64,000 nt of DNA from Candidatus Krumholzibacteriia bacterium (GCA_050174015.1 JBFXKG010000005.1:81994-145993); one strand, 5' to 3'. Shown: positions 15,104 to 50,776, counted from the first letter of the stretch. Translations and numbers: made by a program. The notes: generated by a model not told the origin, from the letters alone.

Positions 15104-15721
15104 CTACTTGTGGTCGGACAGGTACTTGGCCACGCCCTCGGCGGTCGGGACCATGGCGTCGTCGCCCTTCTTCCAGTTCGCCGGACACACCTCACCGTGC
15201 TTCTCCAGGTGCTGCAGGGCATCCACCAGCCGAATCATCTCATCGATGTTCCGGCCCAGGCCCAGGGCGTTGACCGTGCTGTGCTGGATGACCCCGTCCT
15301 TGTCGATCAGGAAGGTGCCGCGCAGCGCCATCCCGCCCTCGAGCAGGAGGCCGTAGTCCTGGCTGATGGTCTTCTGGAAGTCGGCGACCAGGGGGTACTG
15401 GACGTTGCCGATGCCGCCGTTCTCGACCGGGGTGTTCTTCCAGGCCCAGTGGCTGAAGTGGCTGTCGGTCGAGACGCCGATGACCTCGCAGTGGCGGCTC
15501 TTGAACTCCTCCAGCTGCTTGTCGAAGGCGATGATCTCGCTCGGGCAGACGAAGGTGAAGTCCAGGGGGTAGAAGAACATGACGACGTACTTGCCGCGGT
15601 AGTCGGACAGTTTGAAGTCGTTCTTGAAGGTGTTGTCCGGCATGACGGCCGTGGCGGTGAAGTCCGGGGCCTCCCCGGCGACCAGGGGCATGGGGATGAA
15701 GTCGAAGTCCATGTTGTCCAT
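15104..15721 (-). CDS. ahpC: 2-Cys peroxiredoxin (AhpC/Prx1 type)
   Basis: FYPLDFTFVCPSEI peroxidatic Cys and resolving Cys (GEVCPANW); strong RBS aaggaga 8 nt before ATG 15721. Confidence 0.85.
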   Translation of the reverse strand: MDNMDFDFIPMPLVAGEAPDFTATAVMPDNTFKNDFKLSDYRGKYVVMFFYPLDFTFVCPSEIIAFDKQLEEFKSRHCEVIGVSTDSHFSHWAWKNTPVENGGIGNVQYPLVADFQKTISQDYGLLLEGGMALRGTFLIDKDGVIQHSTVNALGLGRNIDEMIRLVDALQHLEKHGEVCPANWKKGDDAMVPTAEGVAKYLSDHK

Positions 15722-15798: not shown

Positions 15799-16221
15799 TC
15801 AGTGGCCACCGGATTCGCCGGGACCGCGGGTGGCCGTCTTCCGGCATTCGGGGCAAAGACCGTAGTATTCCAGTCGATGCCCCTGGATCAGGAATCCGGC
15901 GGATTCCCGGGGCAGTTCGACCGGCGCGCTGGCGGTGGGAAGGTCCTTCACGCAGCCGCATCGCGTGCATCTGATGTGATCATGAGGTTCCATGTCCGCA
16001 TCGAACCTGGCTTCGGCGCCGGAGAATTCCAGTTTGCGGATCCGACCTTCCTGGTGCAGGACTTCCAGGTTCCGGTAGACGGTGCCCAGGGAAATCCTCG
16101 GCAATCGTGATCTCACCTTGGTGAAAAGTTCGGCGGCCGTCGGATGGCGCTTGGTGGAGCAGAGTTCCTCGAGAATCACCGATCGCTGCAATGTGTTGCG
16201 ACGGTTGGTGTTGGATCGCAT
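15799..16221 (-). CDS. perR: Fur-family transcriptional regulator, probable peroxide sensor PerR
   Basis: 140 aa; HDHIRCTRCG and C-terminal CPEC metal site; immediately upstream of ahpC on the same strand. Confidence 0.75.
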   Translation of the reverse strand: MRSNTNRRNTLQRSVILEELCSTKRHPTAAELFTKVRSRLPRISLGTVYRNLEVLHQEGRIRKLEFSGAEARFDADMEPHDHIRCTRCGCVKDLPTASAPVELPRESAGFLIQGHRLEYYGLCPECRKTATRGPGESGGH

Positions 16222-16426
16222 CCTGACTTCCTTCGGCTGCGGGTGAGGGCGAAATTCTCCGAAGCTCTAGGCCCAATTTAATAGGAATGATTATCGTTGT
16301 CAAATTTTATTCGTGACTTCTCTCCGGCATTTTGTGGATTTTATTCCGGCCTGCCTTAAACCCTCGGGCCCCGGGGATCGTCTGTCAAGACGAAGAACAC
16401 ATCCACCGGTGACGGGAGATCGGACG

Positions 16427-17041
16427 ATGATCCAGCAAATCCGCCGGGACGGGCGCCCGATGCCCGGTGCGGCCTCCGACCAGGAACTGGTCGAGGGCAG
16501 CACGGGCGGGGATCGCGCGGCCTACGAGGAGATCTACCGCCGCTACTGCGGGCGCATCCACGGACTGTGCCTGCGCCTGACGGGCGATCCGGTGGAGGCC
16601 GAGTCCCTGACGCAGGACGCCTTCGTGCGCGGCTGGTTCGCTCTGGGGGGATTCCGGGGGCAGGGAAGCCTGGCGGGCTGGCTGTCACGCCTGGCGGTGA
16701 ACCTCTGGCGGGATGGCTTGCGTTCCGGTAAGCGGATGAGGCGCCTGCAGGAAGGCCTGGCCCTCGAGGCCGGGGACGTGACGGGGGAGGGCTCCCTGGC
16801 AGCGGGCAGGAGCGGCGGCAACGTCGTGGCCCTGCTGACCGCGGTGGATCTCGAGCGCTGCCTGCCCAGGCTGCCCGAGGGGGCCCGGACGGTCTTCGTC
16901 CTTCATGACGTGGAAGGTTACACTCACCGGGAGATCGCCGGCCTGCTCGAGGTGGCCACGGGCACGGTGAAGGCCCAGTTGCACAGGGTGCGGCGGCTCT
17001 TGCGGGAAATGCTGGACGCGGACAGGGGAGTCGAATCATGA
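16427..17041 (+). CDS. ECF-type RNA polymerase sigma factor
   Basis: Sigma-70 region 2 (YEEIYRRYCGRIHGLCLRLTGD) and region 4 (VFVLHDVEGYTHREIAGLL...VKAQLHRVRRLL). Confidence 0.75.
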   Translation: MIQQIRRDGRPMPGAASDQELVEGSTGGDRAAYEEIYRRYCGRIHGLCLRLTGDPVEAESLTQDAFVRGWFALGGFRGQGSLAGWLSRLAVNLWRDGLRSGKRMRRLQEGLALEAGDVTGEGSLAAGRSGGNVVALLTAVDLERCLPRLPEGARTVFVLHDVEGYTHREIAGLLEVATGTVKAQLHRVRRLLREMLDADRGVES

Positions 17042-17475
17042 ACGAAACCGAACGCGATCCGTTGCTGCGGGCGGCGGGGGAACTGAGGCGGAGGGGGGCG
17101 GCCCCTTCCCGCGACCTGTGGCCGGACATCGTCGCGGCCATCGACCGCCTGGAAGTCGGGGGGCTCCGGCCCGCCGCTGCGTCACGGAGCGCCCGGCGCT
17201 GGCCGCATCTGGCCGCAGCCGCGGCGGTGACGGTCCTCTGCCTGATGGGTCCCCGCACCTATGGCCCCCCGGAGCATGGCGCCGGGGCGGCTCCCGCCGG
17301 GGGGCTTGCCGCCGTGGATCAGGCGCTGACCGAGGTCCTGACCGCCCTGGAACGGGACCCGGCGAATCCGAACCTGAACCATCTCGCCCGCCGACTCCAC
17401 CGGTCGAGGGCGGAGGTGTTGCTCCTGGAATCGGCGGCCCTCGGCAGGACCGCCCTGATGGATCTTGATCCCTGA
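17038..17475 (+). CDS. Putative anti-sigma factor
   Basis: ATGA overlap with the sigma-gene stop; 145 aa with a central hydrophobic segment; position typical of an anti-sigma partner. Confidence 0.45.
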   Translation: MNETERDPLLRAAGELRRRGAAPSRDLWPDIVAAIDRLEVGGLRPAAASRSARRWPHLAAAAAVTVLCLMGPRTYGPPEHGAGAAPAGGLAAVDQALTEVLTALERDPANPNLNHLARRLHRSRAEVLLLESAALGRTALMDLDP

Positions 17476-17514
17476 CGAAACCATCCGGCTCCGCCGGAAA
17501 CACCGAGGAGGACG

Positions 17515-18423
17515 ATGATGAGAAAGCATGGGATGGCCGCGGCCGGATGGGGCACGGGTCTGGCCGTGATCCTGATGATCATGACGGGCGCCGTCTTCGC
17601 CGAGGAACGGACGGTCCACAAGTCGGGGCCGGCGGATTCCGACGGCCGGGTACGGATCGAGAACATCGCCGGATCCATCGTGGTCGAAGGCTGGGACCGC
17701 GACGAGGTTCAGCTCGACGCCGTCCTGGGCGACGACGTCGAGGATCTCGAGTTCGAATCCGGGGCCGGCACCAAGATCGAGGTCATCTACCCCCGGCACG
17801 GCCGGAACATCGACGAGGGCGCGGACCTGACCATCAAGGTCCCCAGGGGAAGCAGGGTGGAGATCGACGGCGTCAGCTCCACCATCACCGTGGAGAAGGT
17901 GACCGGGGCCGTGTTCGCCGCATCGGTCAGCGGCACGGTGACCGTGTCCGGGACCCTGAAGGAGGTGTCCGCCGAGACCATCAGCGGCGACCTGGACCTG
18001 GACGTGGACTGTCCCGTGGTTTCCACCGAGTCCATCAGCGGGGAGATCCTGGTGCGGGGGCGCATCCTCAAGCTCGGCGCCTCCACGGTGTCGGGAGACC
18101 TCGACCTGGCGGCCGAGCGGTTCATCGAACTCGATCTGCAGTCGGTGACCGGGGACGTCGACGTCGCCGGGGATTTCGATCCCTCCGGTTCCTTCACCTT
18201 CGACCTGCACGGCGGGGATCTGACCCTGTCGGTGCCTGGCAGCCTGGATGCGGACCTGGAGATCGAGACCTTCACCGGGGACATCGAGGATGATTTCGGG
18301 GGCAAGGTGGAGCGGAGCAGCGAGTACGGGCCGGGCAAGGAGATGTCCCTGACGCTGGGCGCCGGCAAGGCGCGCGTCCGGATCAGCACCTTCAGCGGGG
18401 ACGTGAAGATCAACAAGCGCTGA
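17515..18423 (+). CDS. Putative beta-helical adhesin-like protein (DUF4097-like)
   Basis: Signal peptide; repeated GDL/GDV beta-strand motifs (TVSGTL, ISGDLDLDV, VSGDLDLAA, VTGDVDVAG, FSGDVKI); commonly encoded next to ECF sigma/anti-sigma pairs. Confidence 0.55.
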   Translation: MMRKHGMAAAGWGTGLAVILMIMTGAVFAEERTVHKSGPADSDGRVRIENIAGSIVVEGWDRDEVQLDAVLGDDVEDLEFESGAGTKIEVIYPRHGRNIDEGADLTIKVPRGSRVEIDGVSSTITVEKVTGAVFAASVSGTVTVSGTLKEVSAETISGDLDLDVDCPVVSTESISGEILVRGRILKLGASTVSGDLDLAAERFIELDLQSVTGDVDVAGDFDPSGSFTFDLHGGDLTLSVPGSLDADLEIETFTGDIEDDFGGKVERSSEYGPGKEMSLTLGAGKARVRISTFSGDVKINKR

Positions 18424-38170: not shown

Positions 38171-38209
38171 ACGGCATGGACAATTCCGGAACCAATACTA
38201 TAGTATTTT
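38171..38209 (+). promoter_or_regulatory. Sigma-70-like promoter (TGGACA-N18-TAGTAT) overlapping a near-perfect palindrome ccaatactatagtatt(tt)gg in an AT-rich island
   Basis: Hexamers read directly; the palindrome spans the spacer and -10; about 100 nt upstream of the Cys-rich repeat-protein gene. Confidence 0.45.
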
Positions 38210-38311: not shown

Positions 38312-38905
38312 ATGAAGCGCACCACGACCACCCTGATCGCCATGCTGGCCATCCTCGCCCTGTCCGCCACCCTGGCCATGGCGGGGGACGACTGCGGAGC
38401 CAAGAAGGCCGCCGCCAAGGGCGCCTGCGCGGACAAGGCCGCCGCCTGCGCCGACAAGGCCGGCGCGACCGCTCTGGAAGCCTCAGCCAAGGGCGCCTGC
38501 GCGGACAAGGCCGCCGCCTGTGCGGACAAGGCCGGAGCGACCGCCATGGAAGCCTCCGCCAAGGGCGCCTGCGCGGACAAGGCTGCCGCCTGCGCCACCA
38601 AGGCCGGCTCGTGCCCTGATCAGGCCGCCTGCGACGCCGTCAAGGCCGCCATGCACAAGTGTTGCGCCGAGGCCATGGCCGCGGGCAACGGCTGCTGCGG
38701 CAAGGACGCCGCCGGCCTGAAGGCCGACTTCACTCAGAAGGTCGCCTCCCACAAGGCCGCCATGGCCGTGAAGGCCGACATGCACAAGTGCTGCGCCGAG
38801 GCCCTCGACGCGGGCAAGGGCTGCTGCGGCAAGGACGCCGCCGGTCTGAAGGCCGACTTCGACAAGAAGGTCGCCGGGGTCGAGAAGAAGGTCGCCTCGA
38901 TGTAA
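38312..38905 (+). CDS. Secreted Ala/Cys-rich tandem-repeat protein (candidate metal-binding periplasmic protein)
   Basis: Signal peptide; 3 x 24-aa repeat AKGACADKAAACADKAGATA(L/M)EAS (72-nt DNA period from 38415); 2 x about 43-aa repeat MHKCCAEA..G.GCCGKDAAGLKADF; 14 Cys in 197 aa. Confidence 0.6.
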   Translation: MKRTTTTLIAMLAILALSATLAMAGDDCGAKKAAAKGACADKAAACADKAGATALEASAKGACADKAAACADKAGATAMEASAKGACADKAAACATKAGSCPDQAACDAVKAAMHKCCAEAMAAGNGCCGKDAAGLKADFTQKVASHKAAMAVKADMHKCCAEALDAGKGCCGKDAAGLKADFDKKVAGVEKKVASM

Positions 38906-39080
38906 TCCCCCGGTGCCAGCCTGACCACACACCGGGACGGACCCCGGCTCCCTGCGAGCCGGGGTCTTTTCCATGTCACCGGGTATCCATGCCTGCGTAT
39001 TATCCCCTGTCGCCACCGGGCCGGGCATCCGTGCCGGTCCGGAGCGGGCAAGCGATCGGCGCCGATTTTCTTGCGAGGAC

Positions 39081-39713
39081 GTGTCATTGAACCTGAGAAC
39101 CGCGTGGCGTGACCGCAGGCACGGGATCCTGCTCCGGCTGGCCCGGCGCGGTCACGAGGACTCCTTCACCAGGCTTTACCAGGAGCTGTACGCCCCGGTG
39201 ACGGCTTTCGTCGCAAGCCGGGTCAGGAATCGCGAGGACGCCGAGGACGTCGTGTCCCAGGTCTTCCAGCGCTTCCTGGCGGGCATGGACGGGTTCGATG
39301 GCCGGCGCGGGAGCGTGCTCGGCTGGACCCTGGCCATGGCCCGACACGCAGTCATCGACCGCGCCCGGCGCCAGGCCGCCCACGGGGGCGCCCGGCGGTG
39401 GGTGGGGGACGTGGACGGCATGGCGGAGGTGCTGCCGTCCCCGGTCCCGGATGCCCTTGCGGCCCTGGTGGCGGACGAGGATCTGGCCAGGCTGGCCCGG
39501 CTGCTGGACATGCAGCCGGCGGAGATCCGGGAGATGTTCGAGCTGCGCTTCGGCCAGGGCCTGGCCCTGAAGGACGTGGCCGGGGTGCTGGACCTGAGCG
39601 AGGACGCCGTCAAGCAGCGTTTCGCCCGGGCCACGCGGAAGCTGCGGGAACAATGGCGAGGCGACGTGAATCCGGCGGGCAAGGGAGGCAAGACATGCAC
39701 GGCGACGGACTAG
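39081..39713 (+). CDS. ECF-type sigma factor
   Basis: Region 2 (FTRLYQELYAPVTAFVASRV...DVVSQVFQRF) and region 4 (LDMQPAEIREMFELRFGQGLALKDVAGVLDLSEDAVKQRFARATRKL); GTG/TTG start around 39081-39088. Confidence 0.65.
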   Translation: MSLNLRTAWRDRRHGILLRLARRGHEDSFTRLYQELYAPVTAFVASRVRNREDAEDVVSQVFQRFLAGMDGFDGRRGSVLGWTLAMARHAVIDRARRQAAHGGARRWVGDVDGMAEVLPSPVPDALAALVADEDLARLARLLDMQPAEIREMFELRFGQGLALKDVAGVLDLSEDAVKQRFARATRKLREQWRGDVNPAGKGGKTCTATD

Positions 39714-43164: not shown

Positions 43165-44631
43165 TCAATCCTGGTTCACGTCGGAGTAGGCGTTCTTCAG
43201 CTCATACCGCGAAACCCCGCGTTTCTTGTCCGGATCGCCCTCGTAGCCCAGGGCCTTCCAGTCGATGCGCCCCTGGCCTTCCTTGGGATGGCAGTCGACG
43301 CACTTCAGGGCGTACTGGGCGGGAGCGACCATGTGGTTGATCTTCCAGTAGGCCGAGGTCTCGGCGAAGCCGTACTCGCCGCCGTACTCCAGGCCCACCG
43401 CCTCCATGCCCTGCTTCATGGCGCTGTCCCAGTCCCACCCGTTCTTCCAGTAGCCGGTCTTGCCGAAGAGCTTGGGCACGGCCAGGATCCGGGCCTGCTT
43501 GTCGTAGGGCTGCTTGCCGCGCATGACCTTGAACGGGTAGATCTTGGCCTTGGGGTCGAGGCGGTTGCCCTGGAGCCAGTTCAGGTGGGTCACGCCGTCG
43601 GGGTTCATCGCATCGCCCAGGGTGTACTGGCCGCTGACCCCGTTGTACCACGCGTAGGTGGGGACGACGTTCTTCTCCCATTTGAAGGAGCCCTTCTTGA
43701 TGTCGTAGACGGGCATCCCGAATTCGTCCACGGTCGCTTCGATGTTCTGGCCGGCGGTGGACCAGTCCCACCAGGTCTTGGTGGGATTGGCGCGGGCGAA
43801 CTGGGGGATGTGGCAGGTCTGGCAGGCCACGGTCTTGTTGTGCCAGTTCAGGATCCGCTTGGCGTGCAGATCCTCGTCGTGGCAGCTGGTGCACTCGAGG
43901 TGGTTGGTGCCCCCGGGCGAATCGAACATGGCGTTGCCCGCGATGTCGTGGTCGGTGGTGGTGTGGCACTCCTGGCAGGTGAAGTCCTGGCCTTCGGGGC
44001 TCATGTGGACGTCGATGGCCAGCGGGGGTTCGGCCAGGGCCTTTTCCAGGTCGCCGTGCTTGACGTTGTTGCCGCCGCCGCCGTAGAAGTGGCAGGCGCC
44101 GCAGTTCTCGCGGCTGGGCATTCCGGCGCTGCGGGCGATGCTGGCCAGGTCCAGGGGCTCCCAGATCTTGCCCTCCCACTCGGTGGGCTCGTAGACGGGA
44201 TGGCCCGCCCCGGTGGGGAACTTCCGGTAGGAGCCGGTCTGGTCATGGCAGACCAGGCAGTCGATGTTCCCGGGGTTGTCGAAGTCGAAGGTTGCGTCCT
44301 TCCAGCCGTAGCCCGCATGGCAGCTGGTGCACCGCGGCCAGTTGGAATCCAGGGCGATGCAGAAATTGTTCAGGGCGTTCTTCTTGCCGAGGGGGACCTG
44401 GCCCTTGCCCACGACGTCCTGGAGGGGCATCCAGGTCCAGTGGGACGTCTTCATGAAGTCGTGGGCGGCGTCGTCATGGCATTCCAGGCAGACCGCGGTC
44501 ACGGCGGGGCCGTTTTCGAAGGGACCTTCGATGTCCTGGTGATCGGGGACCACGTTCAGGGCGAGGGCCTGACCGCAGGCGGCGGCCAGGACCAAGGCCA
44601 GGATGGTCTGGAATTGGGAAACTCGGCGCAT
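43165..44631 (-). CDS. Octaheme c-type cytochrome (octaheme tetrathionate-reductase-like family)
   Basis: Signal peptide MRRVSQFQTILALVLAAACGQALA; eight CxxCH motifs (CLECH, CTSCH, CLVCH, CGACH, CQECH, CTSCH, CQTCH, CVDCH); ggagg RBS; 488 aa. Confidence 0.8.
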   Translation of the reverse strand: MRRVSQFQTILALVLAAACGQALALNVVPDHQDIEGPFENGPAVTAVCLECHDDAAHDFMKTSHWTWMPLQDVVGKGQVPLGKKNALNNFCIALDSNWPRCTSCHAGYGWKDATFDFDNPGNIDCLVCHDQTGSYRKFPTGAGHPVYEPTEWEGKIWEPLDLASIARSAGMPSRENCGACHFYGGGGNNVKHGDLEKALAEPPLAIDVHMSPEGQDFTCQECHTTTDHDIAGNAMFDSPGGTNHLECTSCHDEDLHAKRILNWHNKTVACQTCHIPQFARANPTKTWWDWSTAGQNIEATVDEFGMPVYDIKKGSFKWEKNVVPTYAWYNGVSGQYTLGDAMNPDGVTHLNWLQGNRLDPKAKIYPFKVMRGKQPYDKQARILAVPKLFGKTGYWKNGWDWDSAMKQGMEAVGLEYGGEYGFAETSAYWKINHMVAPAQYALKCVDCHPKEGQGRIDWKALGYEGDPDKKRGVSRYELKNAYSDVNQD

Positions 44632-44860
44632 GGACGTTGCCTCCGTGTGGAGCCCCCGATCCGTCACGTTCCCCCTGTCAGGGACCGGGTCGGAGCGCTG
44701 TGAAATCATTAACCCTGCCTCAAAATTCACCCAGCCCGGGGGTATAATCAAGAAATTTCATGACAAATTGATGACATAAAGGAGATTGGAACCGTCCGAT
44801 ATTCGTTCTGGGAAGTAAATCAAGAGAGCATTCTGCCGACAAAGAGGGCAGGAGGTCGCC

Positions 44861-45265
44861 ATGATCCAGAGATTCTGCCCCCACCTCGAGGAATACGGGG
44901 TCCAGTTCACGAAGACAGCCGCGTCATACGAGGCGTTCAACGCCCACATGGACCGGTTCATCGAGGAAGGTCGCCCGCCGGAACTGGTCGAGGTCCTGAA
45001 TCAGACGCTCGAGGAGTGGCGCAAGGAGAACAGGACCCTGCGGGCCATGTTTCTGGAACTGTACGAAAACGGCAGGATCCTGCTGCCCAAGGGAGCTCTG
45101 CGGCAGGCGCGCCGACACGACCATCAGGTCCACGGGAAGGCCAAATGCAGCGATTGCTTCCGGGAGGTCCCGCGCCTGGTCTTCGGCGAATGGCAGCTGG
45201 CCCACAACGGGATGGTCAACTTCCGCGGCCGGGAACTTCCCCAGGGGACGGGAGCGGGAGTCTGA
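44861..45265 (+). CDS. Hypothetical protein
   Basis: 134 aa; strong RBS aggaggtcgcc before ATG; no recognised domain. Confidence 0.45.
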   Translation: MIQRFCPHLEEYGVQFTKTAASYEAFNAHMDRFIEEGRPPELVEVLNQTLEEWRKENRTLRAMFLELYENGRILLPKGALRQARRHDHQVHGKAKCSDCFREVPRLVFGEWQLAHNGMVNFRGRELPQGTGAGV

Positions 45266-45664: not shown

Positions 45665-46080
45665 TTCCCTACCTCTGGGCACGGAAGCAACGGGAACCCG
45701 GCGCAAGCACCGCAAGCCCGGATCCTATCACATCAGGAACGGGAATCATCCCTCTTTTCCTCTCCGCCGGAGAGGAGGCTCCAGCCGAAGGCCCCGCCCA
45801 TCAGGACCATCAGGACCGGGTTGGAGGTGAGGCTTCAGCCACCCCCGTTGCAGGCGATCCAGCGGTTGGCGAGGAAGCCTGCGGCGGCGCCCAGCCCGGC
45901 CCCCAGGATGGGTCTCGATCGTTTCCAGTTCATGCGGTCCTCCTTGGATTCCTCCAATATCCCATGCGGGAGGGATTTTGCCAGGATCAAATGCCGGATT
46001 CCGATCATTCCCGGGATAAAATATGACCAATGTGGTGAATTTTTATTATGCTTAAAGTCATTCTGGATGGAAAAATCCGG

Positions 46081-46109
46081 TTGACATTTCCTTGTTTTTT
46101 CGATAAACT
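46081..46109 (+). promoter_or_regulatory. Sigma-70-like promoter TTGACA-N17-TAAACT in an AT-rich island upstream of paralogue pair 1
   Basis: Hexamers read directly; surrounding 300 nt are markedly AT-rich compared with the window. Confidence 0.5.
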
Positions 46110-46159
46110 GAATGCATTGAATGTATTCGCAGCGCCAGGGGACGCAGTGCAATCAACCA

Positions 46160-46174
46160 GGAAAAATTCCTGAT
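46160..46174 (+). promoter_or_regulatory. Conserved motif GGAAAAATTCCTGAT (dyad GGAA-AAA-TTCC), copy 1 of 3
   Basis: Same 14-15-mer at 47738 and 49334, each 110-145 nt upstream of an A-type paralogue start. Confidence 0.5.
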
Positions 46175-46313
46175 AACATTTCCCGGTCATGCCCAGGGAA
46201 TCGGGTAAGACCCGGGAAATCCTGGAAACAATTCGCAAGGCATCGGTTTGTGATCGCTCAAAGCGGACATGAATCATCGGAATTGAACACCAAGAACTTC
46301 TGGGGGTCACACC

Positions 46314-46976
46314 ATGATCAGTTTGGTCAAGAAAATGTCCCTGGCGTTGGTCCTGGCAGCGGTGCTGTCCGTGCCGGCCTTCGCCCAGGTCGCTTCCATC
46401 GATTATATCGGATTCGGGTACGAGACCGGAGGCATCTTCCCCAGCGATCCGGGGGATGAACTGGTGGTCGCCGCCATCGCCGACTGGGTCGACGCTGAGT
46501 TCGGCGTCGATCTCGGCGCGGATGAGCTGACCTTCCACGTCTACGGCCTGATCAGCACCGGCCAGTTCAGCTCCGGCGGCAACACCGTGGTCGGCTACAC
46601 GGGCGGCGTCCTGGAGATCTACCAGGATTCCGGCAAGAACGCCGACTGGGGCGTCAATCCCCCCAACGCCACCTCTCCCGGCACCTTCTCCGACGGAACC
46701 CTCTTCTTCCAGGGCTCGTTCAACGACTTCACGCTCTTCTTCACGCCCGACGGCAACGGGGCCTTCGAGGGCTCCCTCGACGCCCTGGGCGGAACGATGA
46801 TCGACGGCAGCTGCGCCGGGTGCGTGTACACCTGGGGCGGGGCGTTCACCCGTGATGCCGGGGCGCTGATTCCAGGGGGTTACGACCTCCAGATCGACGG
46901 CGTGTTCCAGATCGACGCCACCGTTTCCAGCGAGACCAGCAACTGGGGATCCGTCAAGGCCCTGTTCAACAACTAG
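46314..46976 (+). CDS. Secreted paralogue A1 (type-A, CxxC-containing; C-terminal SWGSVKALFNN)
   Basis: Signal peptide; conserved SIDYIGFGYETGG, ELTFHVYGLIS, LEIYQD, DGSCAGCVYTWGGAF; about 65% identity to A2 and A3. Confidence 0.75.
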   Translation: MISLVKKMSLALVLAAVLSVPAFAQVASIDYIGFGYETGGIFPSDPGDELVVAAIADWVDAEFGVDLGADELTFHVYGLISTGQFSSGGNTVVGYTGGVLEIYQDSGKNADWGVNPPNATSPGTFSDGTLFFQGSFNDFTLFFTPDGNGAFEGSLDALGGTMIDGSCAGCVYTWGGAFTRDAGALIPGGYDLQIDGVFQIDATVSSETSNWGSVKALFNN

Positions 46977-47026
46977 GAAGATCAGCCCGGGCCGTGACAG
47001 GCCTGGGATTCCGGGAGGAATACAGC

Positions 47027-47647
47027 ATGAAGAAGAGGATCATGGTTCTGCTGGTCGCCGCCGCCTCGGTCCTGGTTCCCATGACCGCCCAGGCCCAGCA
47101 GCTTTTCGATTTCAACGGCCAGACCGACCTGCCGGACATGGTGGGATCCGACCTGACGATGTACAGCCGGATGTTCGACGCCTCTCCGGCGGTTCCGCCC
47201 ATCCCCCTTGACTTCGCCAACTACGAGTTCACCCTGGTGGTGACCGGGCTCGAACTGGTGACCGACGGGAATCCCCAGGCTTACGCCGGGGGCACCGTGA
47301 TCATCTACCAGGATGACGCCACGCCGGCGGATTACGCCAACACCGGGACCTTCACCGACGGCACCGCCATCCTGGTGGGCAGCCTGGTCAGCCTGAACCG
47401 GACCATGTTCACCTCGTCCCTGGGCTCCGTCCTGGGCACCGTGGACTGGACCGGGGGGACCCGCCTGGACGACATCGCCCCCGAGGATCAGGACGGCTGG
47501 GCCTTCCTGTCGGGTACGATCAACCGGGCCGATTCCGTCGAACCCGGCTTCGATGAGGCCTGGGACGGGAAGGTCGAACCGCAGGAGCCCATCGTGGACG
47601 ATCAGAACAGCAGCTGGGGATCCGTGAAGGCTCTTTTCAGTCGCTAG
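47027..47647 (+). CDS. Secreted paralogue B1 (type-B, Cys-free; C-terminal SWGSVKALFSR)
   Basis: Signal peptide MKKRIMVLLVAAASVLVPMTAQA; conserved QQLFDFNGQ, PIPLDFANYEFTLVV, GGTVIIYQDD, VDWTGGTRLDDIAPEDQDGWAFLSG. Confidence 0.75.
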   Translation: MKKRIMVLLVAAASVLVPMTAQAQQLFDFNGQTDLPDMVGSDLTMYSRMFDASPAVPPIPLDFANYEFTLVVTGLELVTDGNPQAYAGGTVIIYQDDATPADYANTGTFTDGTAILVGSLVSLNRTMFTSSLGSVLGTVDWTGGTRLDDIAPEDQDGWAFLSGTINRADSVEPGFDEAWDGKVEPQEPIVDDQNSSWGSVKALFSR

Positions 47648-47671
47648 CCGCCATGCGAGGCTTGAGGCGCA

Positions 47672-47703
47672 GGGGCCCCGACCAGGTTCGGGGCCCTTTT
47701 TTG
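47672..47703 (+). terminator. Rho-independent terminator after B1 (ggggccccg-accaggtt-cggggccc + T7)
   Basis: GC stem followed by a T-run. Confidence 0.7.
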
Positions 47704-47737
47704 ATAGGTGGCGTCATTTTCCCGCCCTGGTCATTTA

Positions 47738-47752
47738 GGAAAAATTCCTAAT
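47738..47752 (+). promoter_or_regulatory. Conserved motif GGAAAAATTCCTAAT, copy 2; followed by candidate promoter TTGAAA-N17-TAGGAT (47753-47781)
   Basis: Read directly. Confidence 0.5.
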
Positions 47753-47889
47753 ATTGTTGAAATCGTTCGGGAAATGGCGTAGGATTTTTCACAGACGATT
47801 CAAAATTGATGACATAGGGTGCCGGAGATGATGGGAATCACAACGGACGATCCCGGCCGTGATGCGGCCCGGATCCTGGGGGTACGACG

Positions 47890-48558
47890 ATGAAGAGAAC
47901 CTATGTTCCGAAGGTGCTGGTGGGCGCCTTGCTTCCGGCCCTGTTCGCGGTCCCAGCCCTGGGACAGGTCTATTCGATCGATTACTTGGGCTATGCCTGG
48001 GAAACCGGCGGGATCCTGCCCAGCGATGCGGGCGACGAACTGGTCATCGTCAGCGTCGCGGACAACGTCGATCCCGCCTTCGGGGTCGATCTGGGCACCG
48101 ATGAGCTGACCTTCCACGTCTACGGCCTGATCAGCGGCGGCGAGACGGATTTCCTCGGCAACACCATGATCAACTATTCCGGCGGCTACCTGGAGATCTA
48201 CCAGGATCCTTCGCGGAACGCCGATTGGGGCGTCGATCCCCCCAATGCGACCGCGCCCGGCTCCTTCACCGAGGGCAGCCTGTTCTTCCGTGGCGCCTTC
48301 ACGGCGTTCACCCTGTTCTTCGATCCCAGCGGCAGTTACGGTTCCTTCGAGGGGACTCTCGACGGCCTCGCGGGATCGATCATCGACGATGTCTGCTCCG
48401 ACTGCGTGTACACGTGGGGCGGGGCGTTCACCCTGGATGCCGGCGCCCAGATTCCGCAGGGCTATGACCTCCAGATCGACGGCGTCTTCGAGATCGACGC
48501 GGCCGTGTCCTCGGAATCCGCGAGCTGGGGTTCGGTGAAGGCGCTCTTCAACAATTGA
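47890..48558 (+). CDS. Secreted paralogue A2 (C-terminal SWGSVKALFNN)
   Basis: Signal peptide; SIDYLGYAWETGG ... DDVCSDCVYTWGGAF. Confidence 0.75.
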   Translation: MKRTYVPKVLVGALLPALFAVPALGQVYSIDYLGYAWETGGILPSDAGDELVIVSVADNVDPAFGVDLGTDELTFHVYGLISGGETDFLGNTMINYSGGYLEIYQDPSRNADWGVDPPNATAPGSFTEGSLFFRGAFTAFTLFFDPSGSYGSFEGTLDGLAGSIIDDVCSDCVYTWGGAFTLDAGAQIPQGYDLQIDGVFEIDAAVSSESASWGSVKALFNN

Positions 48559-48605
48559 GGTTTGCATCGCTCCGCGGGGGGCTTGTGACATCTGGAGGTT
48601 GCAAC

Positions 48606-49226
48606 ATGAGATTCACGGTAAAGATCCTGCTGGCCGTCCTGGCGCTGGCTTCGCTTCCGGTGGCCGTGCAGGCCCAGCAGCTGTTCGACTTCAACGGTCA
48701 GGCGGTCCTGCCCGCCGGAACGGGCGGGACCCTGACCATGCACAGCATCGTTTACGACGCGGCTCCCGCCGTGACGCCGATTCCCCTGGATTTCGCGAAC
48801 TTCGAGTTCACGATCGTCGTGGAGAACCTGATCCTGGATGTGGACGGGAATCCGCAGACGTACTCCGGAGGCACGGTCACCCTGTACCAGGACGCTGCGA
48901 CGGCCGCGGACTTCGGGGACCTCTCGACCTTCACGGACGGGACGGCGATCCTGATCGGGACCATCACCACCCTGAACCGGACGCTGTTCACGGCGACCCT
49001 GGGGTCGGTGCTGGGTTCGGTGGACTGGACCGGCGGGACCCGCCTGGACGACATCGCACCCTGGGATCAGGGTGGCTGGGCGTTCCTGAGCGGCCTGACC
49101 AATCGGGTGGATTCGGTGGTGCCGGGATTCGACGAGGCCTGGGACGGGAAGATCGAACCGTCCGAGCCCATCGTCGCCGGCGAGGCGAGTTCCTGGGGTT
49201 CGGTCAAGGCCCTGTTCAATCGTTGA
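48606..49226 (+). CDS. Secreted paralogue B2 (C-terminal SWGSVKALFNR)
   Basis: Signal peptide MRFTVKILLAVLALASLPVAVQA; QQLFDFNGQ ... VDWTGGTRLDDIAPWDQGGWAFLSG. Confidence 0.75.
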   Translation: MRFTVKILLAVLALASLPVAVQAQQLFDFNGQAVLPAGTGGTLTMHSIVYDAAPAVTPIPLDFANFEFTIVVENLILDVDGNPQTYSGGTVTLYQDAATAADFGDLSTFTDGTAILIGTITTLNRTLFTATLGSVLGSVDWTGGTRLDDIAPWDQGGWAFLSGLTNRVDSVVPGFDEAWDGKIEPSEPIVAGEASSWGSVKALFNR

Positions 49227-49243
49227 CCGCCTCCCGTTCATCT

Positions 49244-49276
49244 GCGAGCCCCGGCCTGCGGGGCTCGCAGTTTTTT
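49244..49276 (+). terminator. Rho-independent terminator after B2 (gcgagccccg-gcct-gcggggctcgc + agtttttt)
   Basis: Perfect 10-bp GC stem plus T6. Confidence 0.75.
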
Positions 49277-49333
49277 GACCACATGTGCTCGAATTTGGTA
49301 TATCGTTGCCATCATTGAAGTTGGTGAAAGATA

Positions 49334-49348
49334 AGAAAAATTCCTAAT
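49334..49348 (+). promoter_or_regulatory. Conserved motif AGAAAAATTCCTAAT, copy 3; followed by candidate promoter TTGCAT-N17-TAGTCT (49351-49379)
   Basis: Read directly. Confidence 0.5.
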
Positions 49349-49459
49349 TCCATTGCATTTTCTGGCCGGCCGTGCTAGTCTCACCCTGAAATCGCCCACC
49401 AATTAAAACTCAATTCGATATATGCGACCCGCAACTCGAGTTCAGCTGGAGGGAAGATC

Positions 49460-50122
49460 ATGAAGAAAACCTTCACCCCTTGCGCCCTGGTGAGCCTGCT
49501 GCTCGCTTTCGTTCTGGCGGTGCCGGCGCTGGGGCAGGTGTATTCCGTCGATTATCTCGGTTATGGCTGGGAGCAGGGCGGCCCCCTGAAGGCCGCCGGT
49601 GATGAACTGATCATCACGGCCACGTCGACCTACGTGCATCCTGCCTTCGGCGTCGATCTCGGAACCGAGGAATTGACCTTCTACGTCTCGAGCTTGATCA
49701 GCAACGGCCCGACGGACTACTTCGGCAACACCCAGATCAACTACACCGGCGGCATTCTCGAGATCTATCAGGATCCCCTGATGAACGCGGACTGGGGAGT
49801 CAATCCTCCCAACGCCACCTCACCGGGCAGCTTCCAGGAAGGCAGCCTGTTCTTCGCGGGGGCGTTCACCGCCTTCACCATGTTCTTCGATCCTTCCGGG
49901 TCCTACGGTTCGTTCGAGGGGACCCTCGACGGGGTGGCCGGCTCCATCATCGACGGGGTCTGCTCCGATTGCGTCTACACCTGGGGTGGCGCCTTCCAGA
50001 CCGGTTCCGGGGCCCAGATTCCCGAGGGGTACTGGATCCAGGTCGATGGCGTGTTCGAGATCGATGCCGCCGTATCTTCGGAGGCCGCCAGCTGGGGCTC
50101 CGTCAAAGCACTTTTCAACTAG
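49460..50122 (+). CDS. Secreted paralogue A3 (C-terminal SWGSVKALFN)
   Basis: Signal peptide; SVDYLGYGWEQGG ... DGVCSDCVYTWGGAF. Confidence 0.75.
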   Translation: MKKTFTPCALVSLLLAFVLAVPALGQVYSVDYLGYGWEQGGPLKAAGDELIITATSTYVHPAFGVDLGTEELTFYVSSLISNGPTDYFGNTQINYTGGILEIYQDPLMNADWGVNPPNATSPGSFQEGSLFFAGAFTAFTMFFDPSGSYGSFEGTLDGVAGSIIDGVCSDCVYTWGGAFQTGSGAQIPEGYWIQVDGVFEIDAAVSSEAASWGSVKALFN

Positions 50123-50167: not shown

Positions 50168-50776
50168 ATGAAGAACGCAATCAAGGGAATGCTGATCGTC
50201 CTGGCGGTGGTTGCCTTGCCCCTGTCCGCCTCGGCGCAACAGTTGTTCGACTTCAACGGCCAGGCCATGGTGCCTGCGGTGGTCGGCGGCACGCTGAGCA
50301 TGTACAGCGTGATGTACGATCCCGCCCCGCAGACCACGCCCCTCCCGCTGGACTTCGACAACTTCGAATACACGCTGGTGGTTTCGGGAGCGACCCTCGA
50401 CGTCAACGGCAATCCCCAGTCCTACGTCGGCGGCGTGCTGACGATCTACGAGGACGCGGGTACGGCGGCCGACTTCGCCAACACCGCGACGTTCACCGAC
50501 GGCACGGCCATCCTGGTGGGGAGCTTCACCTCCCTCAACCGGATCGTCTTCCTGAGCACGGGTTCGGTCCAGGGCTACCTGGACTGGAACGGAGGCGCCT
50601 GGCTGAACGACATCGCGCCCGAGGATCAGACCGGCTGGGCCTTCCTTGCCGGCACCAACAGCCGCAGCCCCGAACCCGGATATTCGGAGACCTGGGACGG
50701 CAAGGTGGAGCCGCCGACGGTCATCGTCGACGACCACGTCTCCTCCTTCGGCTCGGTCAAGGCGCTGTTCAAGTAG
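50168..50776 (+). CDS. Secreted paralogue B3 (C-terminal SFGSVKALFK)
   Basis: Signal peptide; QQLFDFNGQ ... LDWNGGAWLNDIAPEDQTGWAFLAG. Confidence 0.75.
   Translation: MKNAIKGMLIVLAVVALPLSASAQQLFDFNGQAMVPAVVGGTLSMYSVMYDPAPQTTPLPLDFDNFEYTLVVSGATLDVNGNPQSYVGGVLTIYEDAGTAADFANTATFTDGTAILVGSFTSLNRIVFLSTGSVQGYLDWNGGAWLNDIAPEDQTGWAFLAGTNSRSPEPGYSETWDGKVEPPTVIVDDHVSSFGSVKALFK

Follow-up and report, generated by a model that had tools for sequence, protein, structure and literature searches.

Regulators of the Fur family recognize, as their minimal site, two 7-nt half-sites inverted around a single base, a layout known as the 7-1-7 repeat (PMC5007448), and they can either repress or activate depending on the position of that site (PMC11353095). 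For PerR, the Per box reads TTATAATNATTATAA; such boxes are found within and near promoters, the perR gene is autoregulated, and ahpC belongs to the regulon (PMC3953959). Here, we analyzed 64,000 nt of DNA from Candidatus Krumholzibacteriia bacterium (the window; all positions are counted from its first letter), in which a 15-mer of the form RGAAAAATTCCTRAT occurs on the plus strand at 46160, 47738, and 49334, each copy preceding one of three tandem gene pairs, A then B. We propose, with a probability of roughly 0.6, that this dyad is a Per-box-type operator of the Fur family, with 7-1-7 geometry and a variant arm, and that its likeliest binder is a PerR-like regulator whose gene also lies in the window (15799-16221). 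The variant arm is YRRGAAT in place of TTATAAT or TGATAAT.

The three copies are GGAAAAATTCCTGAT (46160-46174, unit 1), GGAAAAATTCCTAAT (47738-47752, unit 2), and AGAAAAATTCCTAAT (49334-49348, unit 3). No further copy was found on either strand of the 64 kb with up to 2 mismatches, a search for which 0.09 copies would be expected and in which none of 100 shuffled sequences yielded three; the 10-mer core with at most 1 mismatch also matched the same three places only. The positions and the uniqueness given in an earlier note on this DNA are thus exact, as is the AT richness that it ascribed to the surrounding islands (41 to 48% G+C versus 66.5% in the window). Its distance of 110 to 145 nt to the A start is correct when measured from the 3' end of the motif (140, 138, and 112 nt to the ATG in units 1, 2, and 3, respectively); from the 5' end, the distances are 154, 152, and 126 nt. 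Because the units are paralogous, shuffling is the wrong null model, and the proper one is neutral decay after duplication. When the three upstream regions were aligned, the motif was the sole conserved block. Between units 2 and 3, the promoter spacers have been randomized (approximately 4 of 17 positions identical), while the motif, the TTG of the -35 element, and the TA..T of the -10 element have been kept.

Written as 7-1-7 boxes, the copies read CAGGAAA-A-ATTCCTG (46158..46172, strand neutral), TAGGAAA-A-ATTCCTA (47736..47750), and TAAGAAA-A-ATTCCTA (49332..49346), with 6, 6, and 5 of 7 arm positions symmetric. The perfect GGAA-AAA-TTCC dyad described previously is therefore present in units 1 and 2 but not in unit 3, which has AGAA and is imperfect. 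Likewise, a 4+3+4 layout fits this lineage only, the general element being RRGAAT-W-ATTCYY with a 6/7-1-6/7 arrangement.

This general form emerged from related loci, which are designated here by L numbers (L003, L115, and so on) and whose A homologues come from Krumholzibacteria-type metagenome-assembled genomes (MAGs). Apart from the window, a near-identical MAG alone has the exact motif; it is absent from the more distant relatives, and a generalized pattern was used for these. An RRGAAT-W-ATTCYY palindrome is located 5' of the middle unit (unit 2) in eight independent lineages, the window lineage and seven others: TAGAAAAATTCCT in L115, GAGAATAATTCTC in L003, GGGAATTATTCTC in L004, AGGATTAATTCCT in L005, GGGAATTATTCTT in L011, AAGAATTATTCTC in L116, and AGGAATAGTTCTG in L117. 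It always lies 7 to 8 nt 5' of a TTGnnn-N17-TAnnnT promoter, mostly with an extended -10 TG. Alignment of nine promoters from the eight lineages left as invariant positions the GA...TTC of the dyad, the -35 TTG, and the -10 TA...T, and the A proteins of these lineages are only 60 to 75% identical. The generalized 13-mer had 17 matches in 611 kb, 15 of them 126 to 171 nt before an A start; a scan of metagenomes returned mostly duplicates of the MAG loci.

The symmetry of the element is itself rare. Among 343,558 positions, the sole perfect 11-1-11 palindrome is the L003 site, in which all 7 arm positions are symmetric, and AT-rich segments with at least 10 of 11 symmetric matches numbered only two, the L003 and L004 sites. 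The dyad symmetry is thus not a by-product of A/T richness. Taken together, the conserved block, the fixed promoter spacing, and the rare symmetry indicate that the motif is a selected, two-fold-symmetric, promoter-associated element. Its center would fall at approximately -49/-50, assuming a transcription start some 7 nt past the -10 element.

Outside the window lineage, unit 2 alone carries the palindrome at this position. A separate block, TTTTC-ATTATTG(TG), follows the unit-2 terminator some 60 to 70 nt before the unit-3 -35 element in L115 (position 5826), L003, L116, and L117. In L115, it scores 15.6 bits with the regulator-box matrix described below, and it may represent the unit-3 operator in lineages that have no dyad there.

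The promoters of the window provide the frame in which these sites would act. Unit 1 has a strong sigma70-type promoter, P1 (TTGACA-N17-TAAACT, 46081..46109); P2 (TTGAAA-N17-TAGGAT, 47757..47785) precedes unit 2 and carries the invariant -35 TTG and -10 TA...T; and P3 (TTGCAT-N17-TAGTCT with an extended -10 TG, 49353..49381) precedes unit 3, all three on the plus strand. The candidate -35 elements of units 2 and 3 have the hexamers that had been named for them, and they are conserved across lineages together with the extended -10 TG; in both units, the 13-nt core of the box ends 7 nt before the -35, and in unit 2 its center is at about -49. The -10 hexamers of the unit-2 and unit-3 promoters are weak (3 to 4 of 6 positions), and the unit-1 promoters are near consensus, with TTGACx-N17/18-TATAAT in the unit-1 orthologues. 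The strong promoter upstream of unit 1 was correctly recognized before, 79 nt from the motif, but the motif would then sit inside the leader, spanning roughly +45 to +58 relative to the expected P1 start, and no usable -35/-10 pair was found 3' of it (TTTCCC-N21-TAAGAC). G+C-rich hairpins with T-runs follow B1 (47671..47703, plus strand) and B2 (49242..49276, plus strand), and the hairpin after B3 is similar but has a poor T-run; the A/B units, unit 2 included, are therefore separate transcription units.

A motif variant one base shorter, GGAAAAATCC, lies at 46069..46078, 2 nt 5' of the P1 -35, in a divergent promoter region shared with a 32-amino-acid (aa) glycine-zipper open reading frame (ORF) on the minus strand (45838-45936). 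With one match versus 0.08 expected, it is weak evidence for a possible extra site. GGAAWWTC elements resembling GGAAAAATCC abut the -35 of third-unit promoters in L003, L004, L005, and L007.

The candidate trans-acting factor is encoded about 30 kb from the array. The PerR-like Fur-family gene (140 aa, 15799..16221, minus strand) is followed downstream by ahpC, which encodes a peroxiredoxin (15104-15718, minus strand). The regulator matches Pfam FUR with E = 1.4e-25; its closest solved relative is Bacillus subtilis PerR (2fe3, E = 1e-23), with Fur proteins at approximately 5e-15. In the alignment to 2fe3, H37, D85, H91, H93, D104, and the four zinc cysteines are conserved, D104 being a PerR-typical residue. 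The roles of H37 and H91 in PerR have been described (PMC3953959). Since the protein scores below the NCBIfam PerR equivalog cutoffs (99 and 93 bits with the best models versus 200 and 180 required), we refer to it as PerR-like.

The gene of this regulator has a box of its own. Its promoter, TTGACA-N17-TAAATT (16275..16303, minus strand), contains within the -35/-10 spacer the 7-1-7 sequence TAGGAAT-G-ATTATCG (16282-16296), one arm of which equals the arm of the dyad; TAGGAAT occurs three times in the window, in this box, in unit 2, and in unit 3. Orthologous regulator genes in eight further lineages have a 7-1-7 box at the same spacer position, making nine lineages with the window. The box is CAGGAAT-C-ATTCCTA in L120/121 and TCGGAAT-C-ATTCCTA in L124, which are complete dyads, TGATAAT-C-ATTCCTG in L125, CGATTTT-C-ATTCCTA in L118, and TCAGAAT-C-GTTATTA in L126, with more classical arms in L122, L119, and L123. 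Thus, two lineages have the full A/B-type dyad in the regulator-gene spacer, and four others have half of it.

The perR-ahpC operon is flanked by a divergent group comprising an extracytoplasmic function (ECF) sigma gene, a 145-aa ORF, and a DUF4097 "toastrack" gene (16427-18423). This arrangement is kept in at least L118, L120, L121, and L122; the sigma gene alone is also divergent from perR in L123 and L124, and a TTAAAC-N17-CGTC ECF-like promoter can be read 5' of the divergent sigma gene.

A matrix was cross-trained on the eight regulator-gene boxes of the other genomes, with the window excluded. Over the whole window (63,986 positions), it placed the regulator's own box first and the dyads at ranks 3, 5, and 6. 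These ranks are inflated by base composition, since against the GC-rich background shuffled AT-rich upstream regions reach the dyad scores in 32%, 6.8%, and 4.5% of trials, and a matched-background test was used instead. In that test, the best match in each 240-nt upstream region was the predefined dyad, in register, in all 10 regions, with shuffle P values of 0.0015 to 0.06 in seven of the eight independent lineages and a Fisher combined P value of 3.4e-7 over the eight. A reciprocal matrix built from the A/B sites found the regulator-gene box as its fifth-best match in the window.

The matrix also located boxes at other positions. TTATAAT-G-ATTCCTG boxes (13 to 18.6 bits) lie over the -10 element of the unit-1 promoters in L003, L004, L005, L116, and L117, and L011 has a second, adjacent box over the unit-2 -35. 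In the L003 and L004 unit-1 boxes, the right arm with its flank, ATTCCTGTTAAC, is identical at 11 of 12 positions to ATTCCTGATAAC of the window unit 1. A Per-like 15-mer, CGATATTCGTTCTGG, at 44797-44811 (13 bits, the fourth best in the window) is situated between a divergent multihaem cytochrome gene (43165-44751, minus strand) and a 134-aa gene (44861-45265); it may mark a further member of the regulon, although no clear promoter could be assigned to it. A match at 38186 was rejected as a relative of the dyad because it is a different palindrome. The perfect palindrome AATACTATAGTATT at 38190-38203, 5' of an unannotated 197-aa ORF (38312-38905) that is followed by an ECF sigma gene (38973-39713), is probably a separate operator.

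Compared with the described systems, the locus is closest to the Per box and PerR of B. subtilis. The two have in common the 15-bp 7-1-7 inverted repeat with an AAT-N-ATT center, sites within or near sigma70-type promoters, an autoregulated regulator gene, and a link to ahpC (PMC3953959), and the His/Asp residues of the regulatory site and the Cys4 zinc site are conserved in the window protein. The differences are that the arms are YRRGAAT, with G at -4/-5 from the center, rather than TTATAAT; that the A/B boxes are A/T centered and, in units 2 and 3, lie just 5' of the -35 rather than over the core promoter; that the targets are an uncharacterized secreted pair and not catalase, Dps, or haem genes; and that the window protein falls under the equivalog thresholds. 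The Fur box, in the model of Baichoo and Helmann of two overlapping 7-1-7 repeats, has the same geometry in its one-dimer minimal site (PMC5007448, PMC11353095), and some of the regulator-gene boxes have a Fur-like arm, (C/T)GATAAT. However, the A/B sites are single 7-1-7 repeats and not the 19-bp double site, a second adjacent box being present in L011 only, and no evidence of iron-related targets was found. A parallel in layout is the ospC operator of Borrelia burgdorferi, where conserved inverted repeats abutting the -35 of a surface-protein gene, directly 5' of the promoter of this exported product, act as an operator (PMC3700930), although its sequence, length, and sigma factor are unrelated and ospC relies on base-pairing potential and supercoiling. 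A string match to GGAAAAATTCC in the same paper (PMC3700930) is a primer and coincidental. Searches of the literature with literal motif strings gave coincidental matches only, and no paper on Krumholzibacteriota promoters was found.

These results support a model in which the dyad is a Fur-family operator read by the PerR-like protein. The AAT-N-ATT center with the 7-1-7 layout is exact in orthologous sites (GAGAAT-A-ATTCTC, GGGAAT-T-ATTCTC, AAGAAT-T-ATTCTC), and the 6/7-1-6/7 layout around such a center is the one found in Fur-family boxes. Relative to the promoters, the box is found in three settings: with its core ending 7 to 8 nt before the -35 in units 2 and 3, in the leader of unit 1, and over the -10 of unit 1 in other lineages. 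Its occurrence in the regulator spacer and over the unit-1 -10 elsewhere favors repression, and the A/B pairs are probably under common, repressive stress control. The earlier proposal of an operator for a dimeric regulator is borne out by the dyad symmetry, by the fixed spacing to a sigma70-type promoter in eight lineages, and by the PerR-like autoregulatory box family; that the three pairs are under common control agrees with the promoter-associated motif that all of them share.

By analogy with the established behavior of PerR and Fur (PMC3953959, PMC11353095), a dimer of the metal-loaded regulator would bind the boxes and hold down the three A/B operons together with perR-ahpC. Peroxide would then oxidize the histidines of the regulatory site, the regulator would leave the DNA, and perR-ahpC and all A/B units would be derepressed together. 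In units 2 and 3, a dimer on the box (approximately -57 to -43) could block the upstream contacts of RNA polymerase or nucleate further dimers over the -35, while the unit-1 box in the leader could act as a roadblock. The regulator's own box is closer to the consensus than the A/B boxes are, and the latter may be released earlier, giving a graded response.

Several observations weigh against this model. The window sites read AAA-A-ATT, one core mismatch from AAT-N-ATT that results from a left arm ending in AAA rather than AAT, and the center base is A/T in the A/B boxes versus C/G in every regulator-gene box. With the matched background, the window's own sites are weak (8 to 9 bits, shuffle P values of 0.04 to 0.06 each), and the L115 A/B site scores -1.9 and fails the matrix test; the frequency with which GC-rich-background shuffles reach the dyad scores, given above, belongs here as well. 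In the one assembly that contains L117 and L119, the regulator box has classical ATAAT arms and the A/B site has GGAAT/GAAC arms, so that there is no strict covariation of the arms. A site that ends 7 to 8 nt before the -35 is not in the classical position for steric repression. Another Fur-family paralogue, encoded outside the 64 kb, could be the true binder. Finally, the link to the regulator is partly post hoc, having been found after the Fur-like layout prompted the search.

Some of these points would be accommodated if the dyad were an operator for another dimeric regulator, either a Fur-family paralogue such as Fur or Zur or an unrelated palindrome-binding protein, possibly an activator contacting RNA polymerase from about -50. 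The fixed 7- to 8-nt spacing to the -35 in nine promoters suits stereospecific activation, the -10 hexamers of units 2 and 3 are weak next to the near-consensus ones of unit 1, and activation from upstream sites is possible for Fur-family proteins (PMC11353095); the lack of strict arm covariation with the PerR-like box in the L117/L119 pair and the differing center bases of the A/B and regulator-gene sites also fit a different binder. We nevertheless judge such a regulator unlikely, though worth serious attention, as the promoter spacer of the PerR-like gene contains the complete dyad in two lineages and one half of it in another four, the box over the -10 of unit-1 promoters elsewhere is in a repressor position, and no other regulator gene is syntenic with the array.

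Other candidates of this kind were considered and set aside. Class I and class II activator sites are centered at positions such as -61.5 or -41.5. The class-I/II activator site suggested in the earlier note is disfavored by a center at about -49/-50 and by boxes in the regulator spacer and over the unit-1 -10 in other lineages; a CRP-FNR site of this type (22 bp, TGTGA-N6-TCACA) differs, in addition, in sequence and half-site spacing. Sites for sigma54, IHF, Fis, and Lrp and an ECF -35 were dropped for poor fit, judged by eye against consensus sequences. A conserved 134-aa neighbor (44861-45265) was rejected as the regulator, since it is a helical hairpin for which neither sequence-profile nor fold comparison gave a DNA-binding match. 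This protein consists of two long helices and a Cys-containing tail, and it is encoded upstream of the array in nine loci from seven lineages; searches of Pfam, the PDB, and folds gave no match, and it belongs to a narrow family of 6 clusters among 5.8 billion proteins. An Rfam scan of the A/B leaders returned nothing.

A dedicated regulator would not be needed if the element were an intrinsic part of the promoter, such as a UP-like A/T tract bound by the alpha subunit of polymerase or bent DNA. Like UP elements (for example, that of rrnB P1, at -40 to -60 with an A/T-rich core), the dyad spans approximately -57 to -43 and has an A/T-rich center; several lineages have kept AAA at about -43 to -41, and other A/B promoter classes have T-runs or A-runs at the same place. 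We find this improbable, because the invariant positions are the symmetric G and C of GA...TTC and not A/T, and in L003 and L004 the dyad stays symmetric over 23 bp. UP elements lack dyad symmetry and conserved flanks of G/C, and they are not repeated inside spacers or leaders; the same sequence as the dyad is met between the -35 and -10 of the regulator-gene promoter and within the leader of unit 1, positions at which it could not work as a UP element.

Still less credible is the notion that the copies are mere remnants, left by tandem duplication or gene conversion and lacking any function of their own. The three units are indeed paralogues, the A2 and A3 proteins cluster in the lineage of the window and L115, the unit-3 promoter looks converted from that of unit 2, and the unit-1 and unit-3 copies of the motif are confined to this lineage. 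Against this stand the randomization of flanks and spacers around a motif that was kept, the retention of the unit-2 element in eight lineages despite the divergence of their A proteins, and the palindromy, which descent alone does not explain; this cross-lineage footprint largely refutes a relic. The least likely of all is that the dyad serves site-specific recombination, by which cassettes would be shuffled or a segment inverted, or that it is the -35 of an ECF promoter: a palindromic repeat at each unit boundary and the ECF-type promoters and sigma genes of deep-branch A/B loci would suit the one and the other, but there is no recombinase nearby, gene order is colinear in the close MAG and in L115 to L117, the element is present in a single copy in most lineages and has no central spacer of the tyrosine-recombinase kind, and an ECF promoter (GGAAC-like -35, CGT -10) was rejected because no CGT element lies at ECF distance from the motif in the window, such promoters being met instead in 15 deep-branch A/B loci.

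The genes under this putative control form a widespread, uncharacterized family of secreted pairs with a family-specific C-terminal tail. On the plus strand of the window, they are A1 (46314-46976) and B1 (47027-47647), A2 (47890-48558) and B2 (48606-49226), and A3 (49460-50122) and B3 (50168-50776). The A proteins are approximately 220 aa and the B proteins approximately 205 aa long; both have signal peptides and end in SWGSVKALF, and the A-then-B order is kept in all loci recovered, which have one to three tandem copies. Neither protein matched Pfam. The predicted structure of A is all beta (predicted local distance difference test [pLDDT] score of 78), and a search of solved folds with this model gave no convincing match. 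A variable surface or secreted product, as had been suggested, fits poorly: A and B do have signal peptides, yet orthologues of both are conserved from genus to genus.

According to protein trees, the units are ancient paralogues. Unit 1 has orthologues in other genera, and B3 is placed among the third-unit B proteins found there, while A2 and A3 cluster together in the lineage of the window and L115. The A2/A3 clustering is indicative of gene conversion or reduplication, and since B3 stays with the third-unit B proteins, the trees indicate concerted evolution by gene conversion confined to the promoter-plus-A part of the unit. The unit-3 box, together with a unit-2-type promoter, was probably acquired by gene conversion and then kept.

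In deep-branch relatives (among loci L027 to L042 and L075 to L090), A and B form an operon with an ECF sigma gene behind GGGAAC-N18-CGTT[GA]TCC, a promoter located about 112 nt from the ATG; the nonredundant cases number 15, with the sigma gene present wherever the contig continues. In comparison with these operons, the clade with the array appears to have changed its mode of control. It is conceivable, if doubtful, that the A/B pairs are unrecognized effectors of envelope or oxidative stress whose control was rewired, in the course of Krumholzibacteriia evolution, from an autoregulated ECF sigma operon (an ancestral A-B-sigma order with GGGAAC-N18-CGTTGTCC) to a PerR-type repressor with a shifted half-site (G at -4/-5) and with operators at three positions (-10, -50, and leader), giving each unit its own threshold.

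In mechanism, the system is most likely ordinary, a known kind of gene switch placed on an uncharacterized gene family. The analysis yields a testable regulon prediction for a phylum, that of the Krumholzibacteriia, none of whose members has been cultured or studied genetically. The prediction comprises a PerR-like repressor and its box, along with perR-ahpC and the three operons that encode an uncharacterized secreted pair. It also offers a functional hint, peroxide or envelope stress, for widespread "hypothetical" proteins that are linked to ECF sigma factors in deeper branches, documents a variant Fur-family half-site, and shows the movement of an operator between paralogous promoters.

A second conserved feature was noticed in the leaders of some A/B genes. 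One branch of the family (L008, L009, L012, L014, L041, and L053 to L061) has a long conserved leader, approximately 190 to 220 nt before the A start, for which pairing between a CGCCC block and the GGGGG Shine-Dalgarno sequence is predicted. Six pairs are kept in 8 to 11 of 11 sequences, with almost no covariation. A TCGCC block is found in most unit-2 and unit-3 leaders, including that of unit 3 in the window (49391-49399), and the CGCCC/TCGCC leader block may be an anti-Shine-Dalgarno element of translational control.

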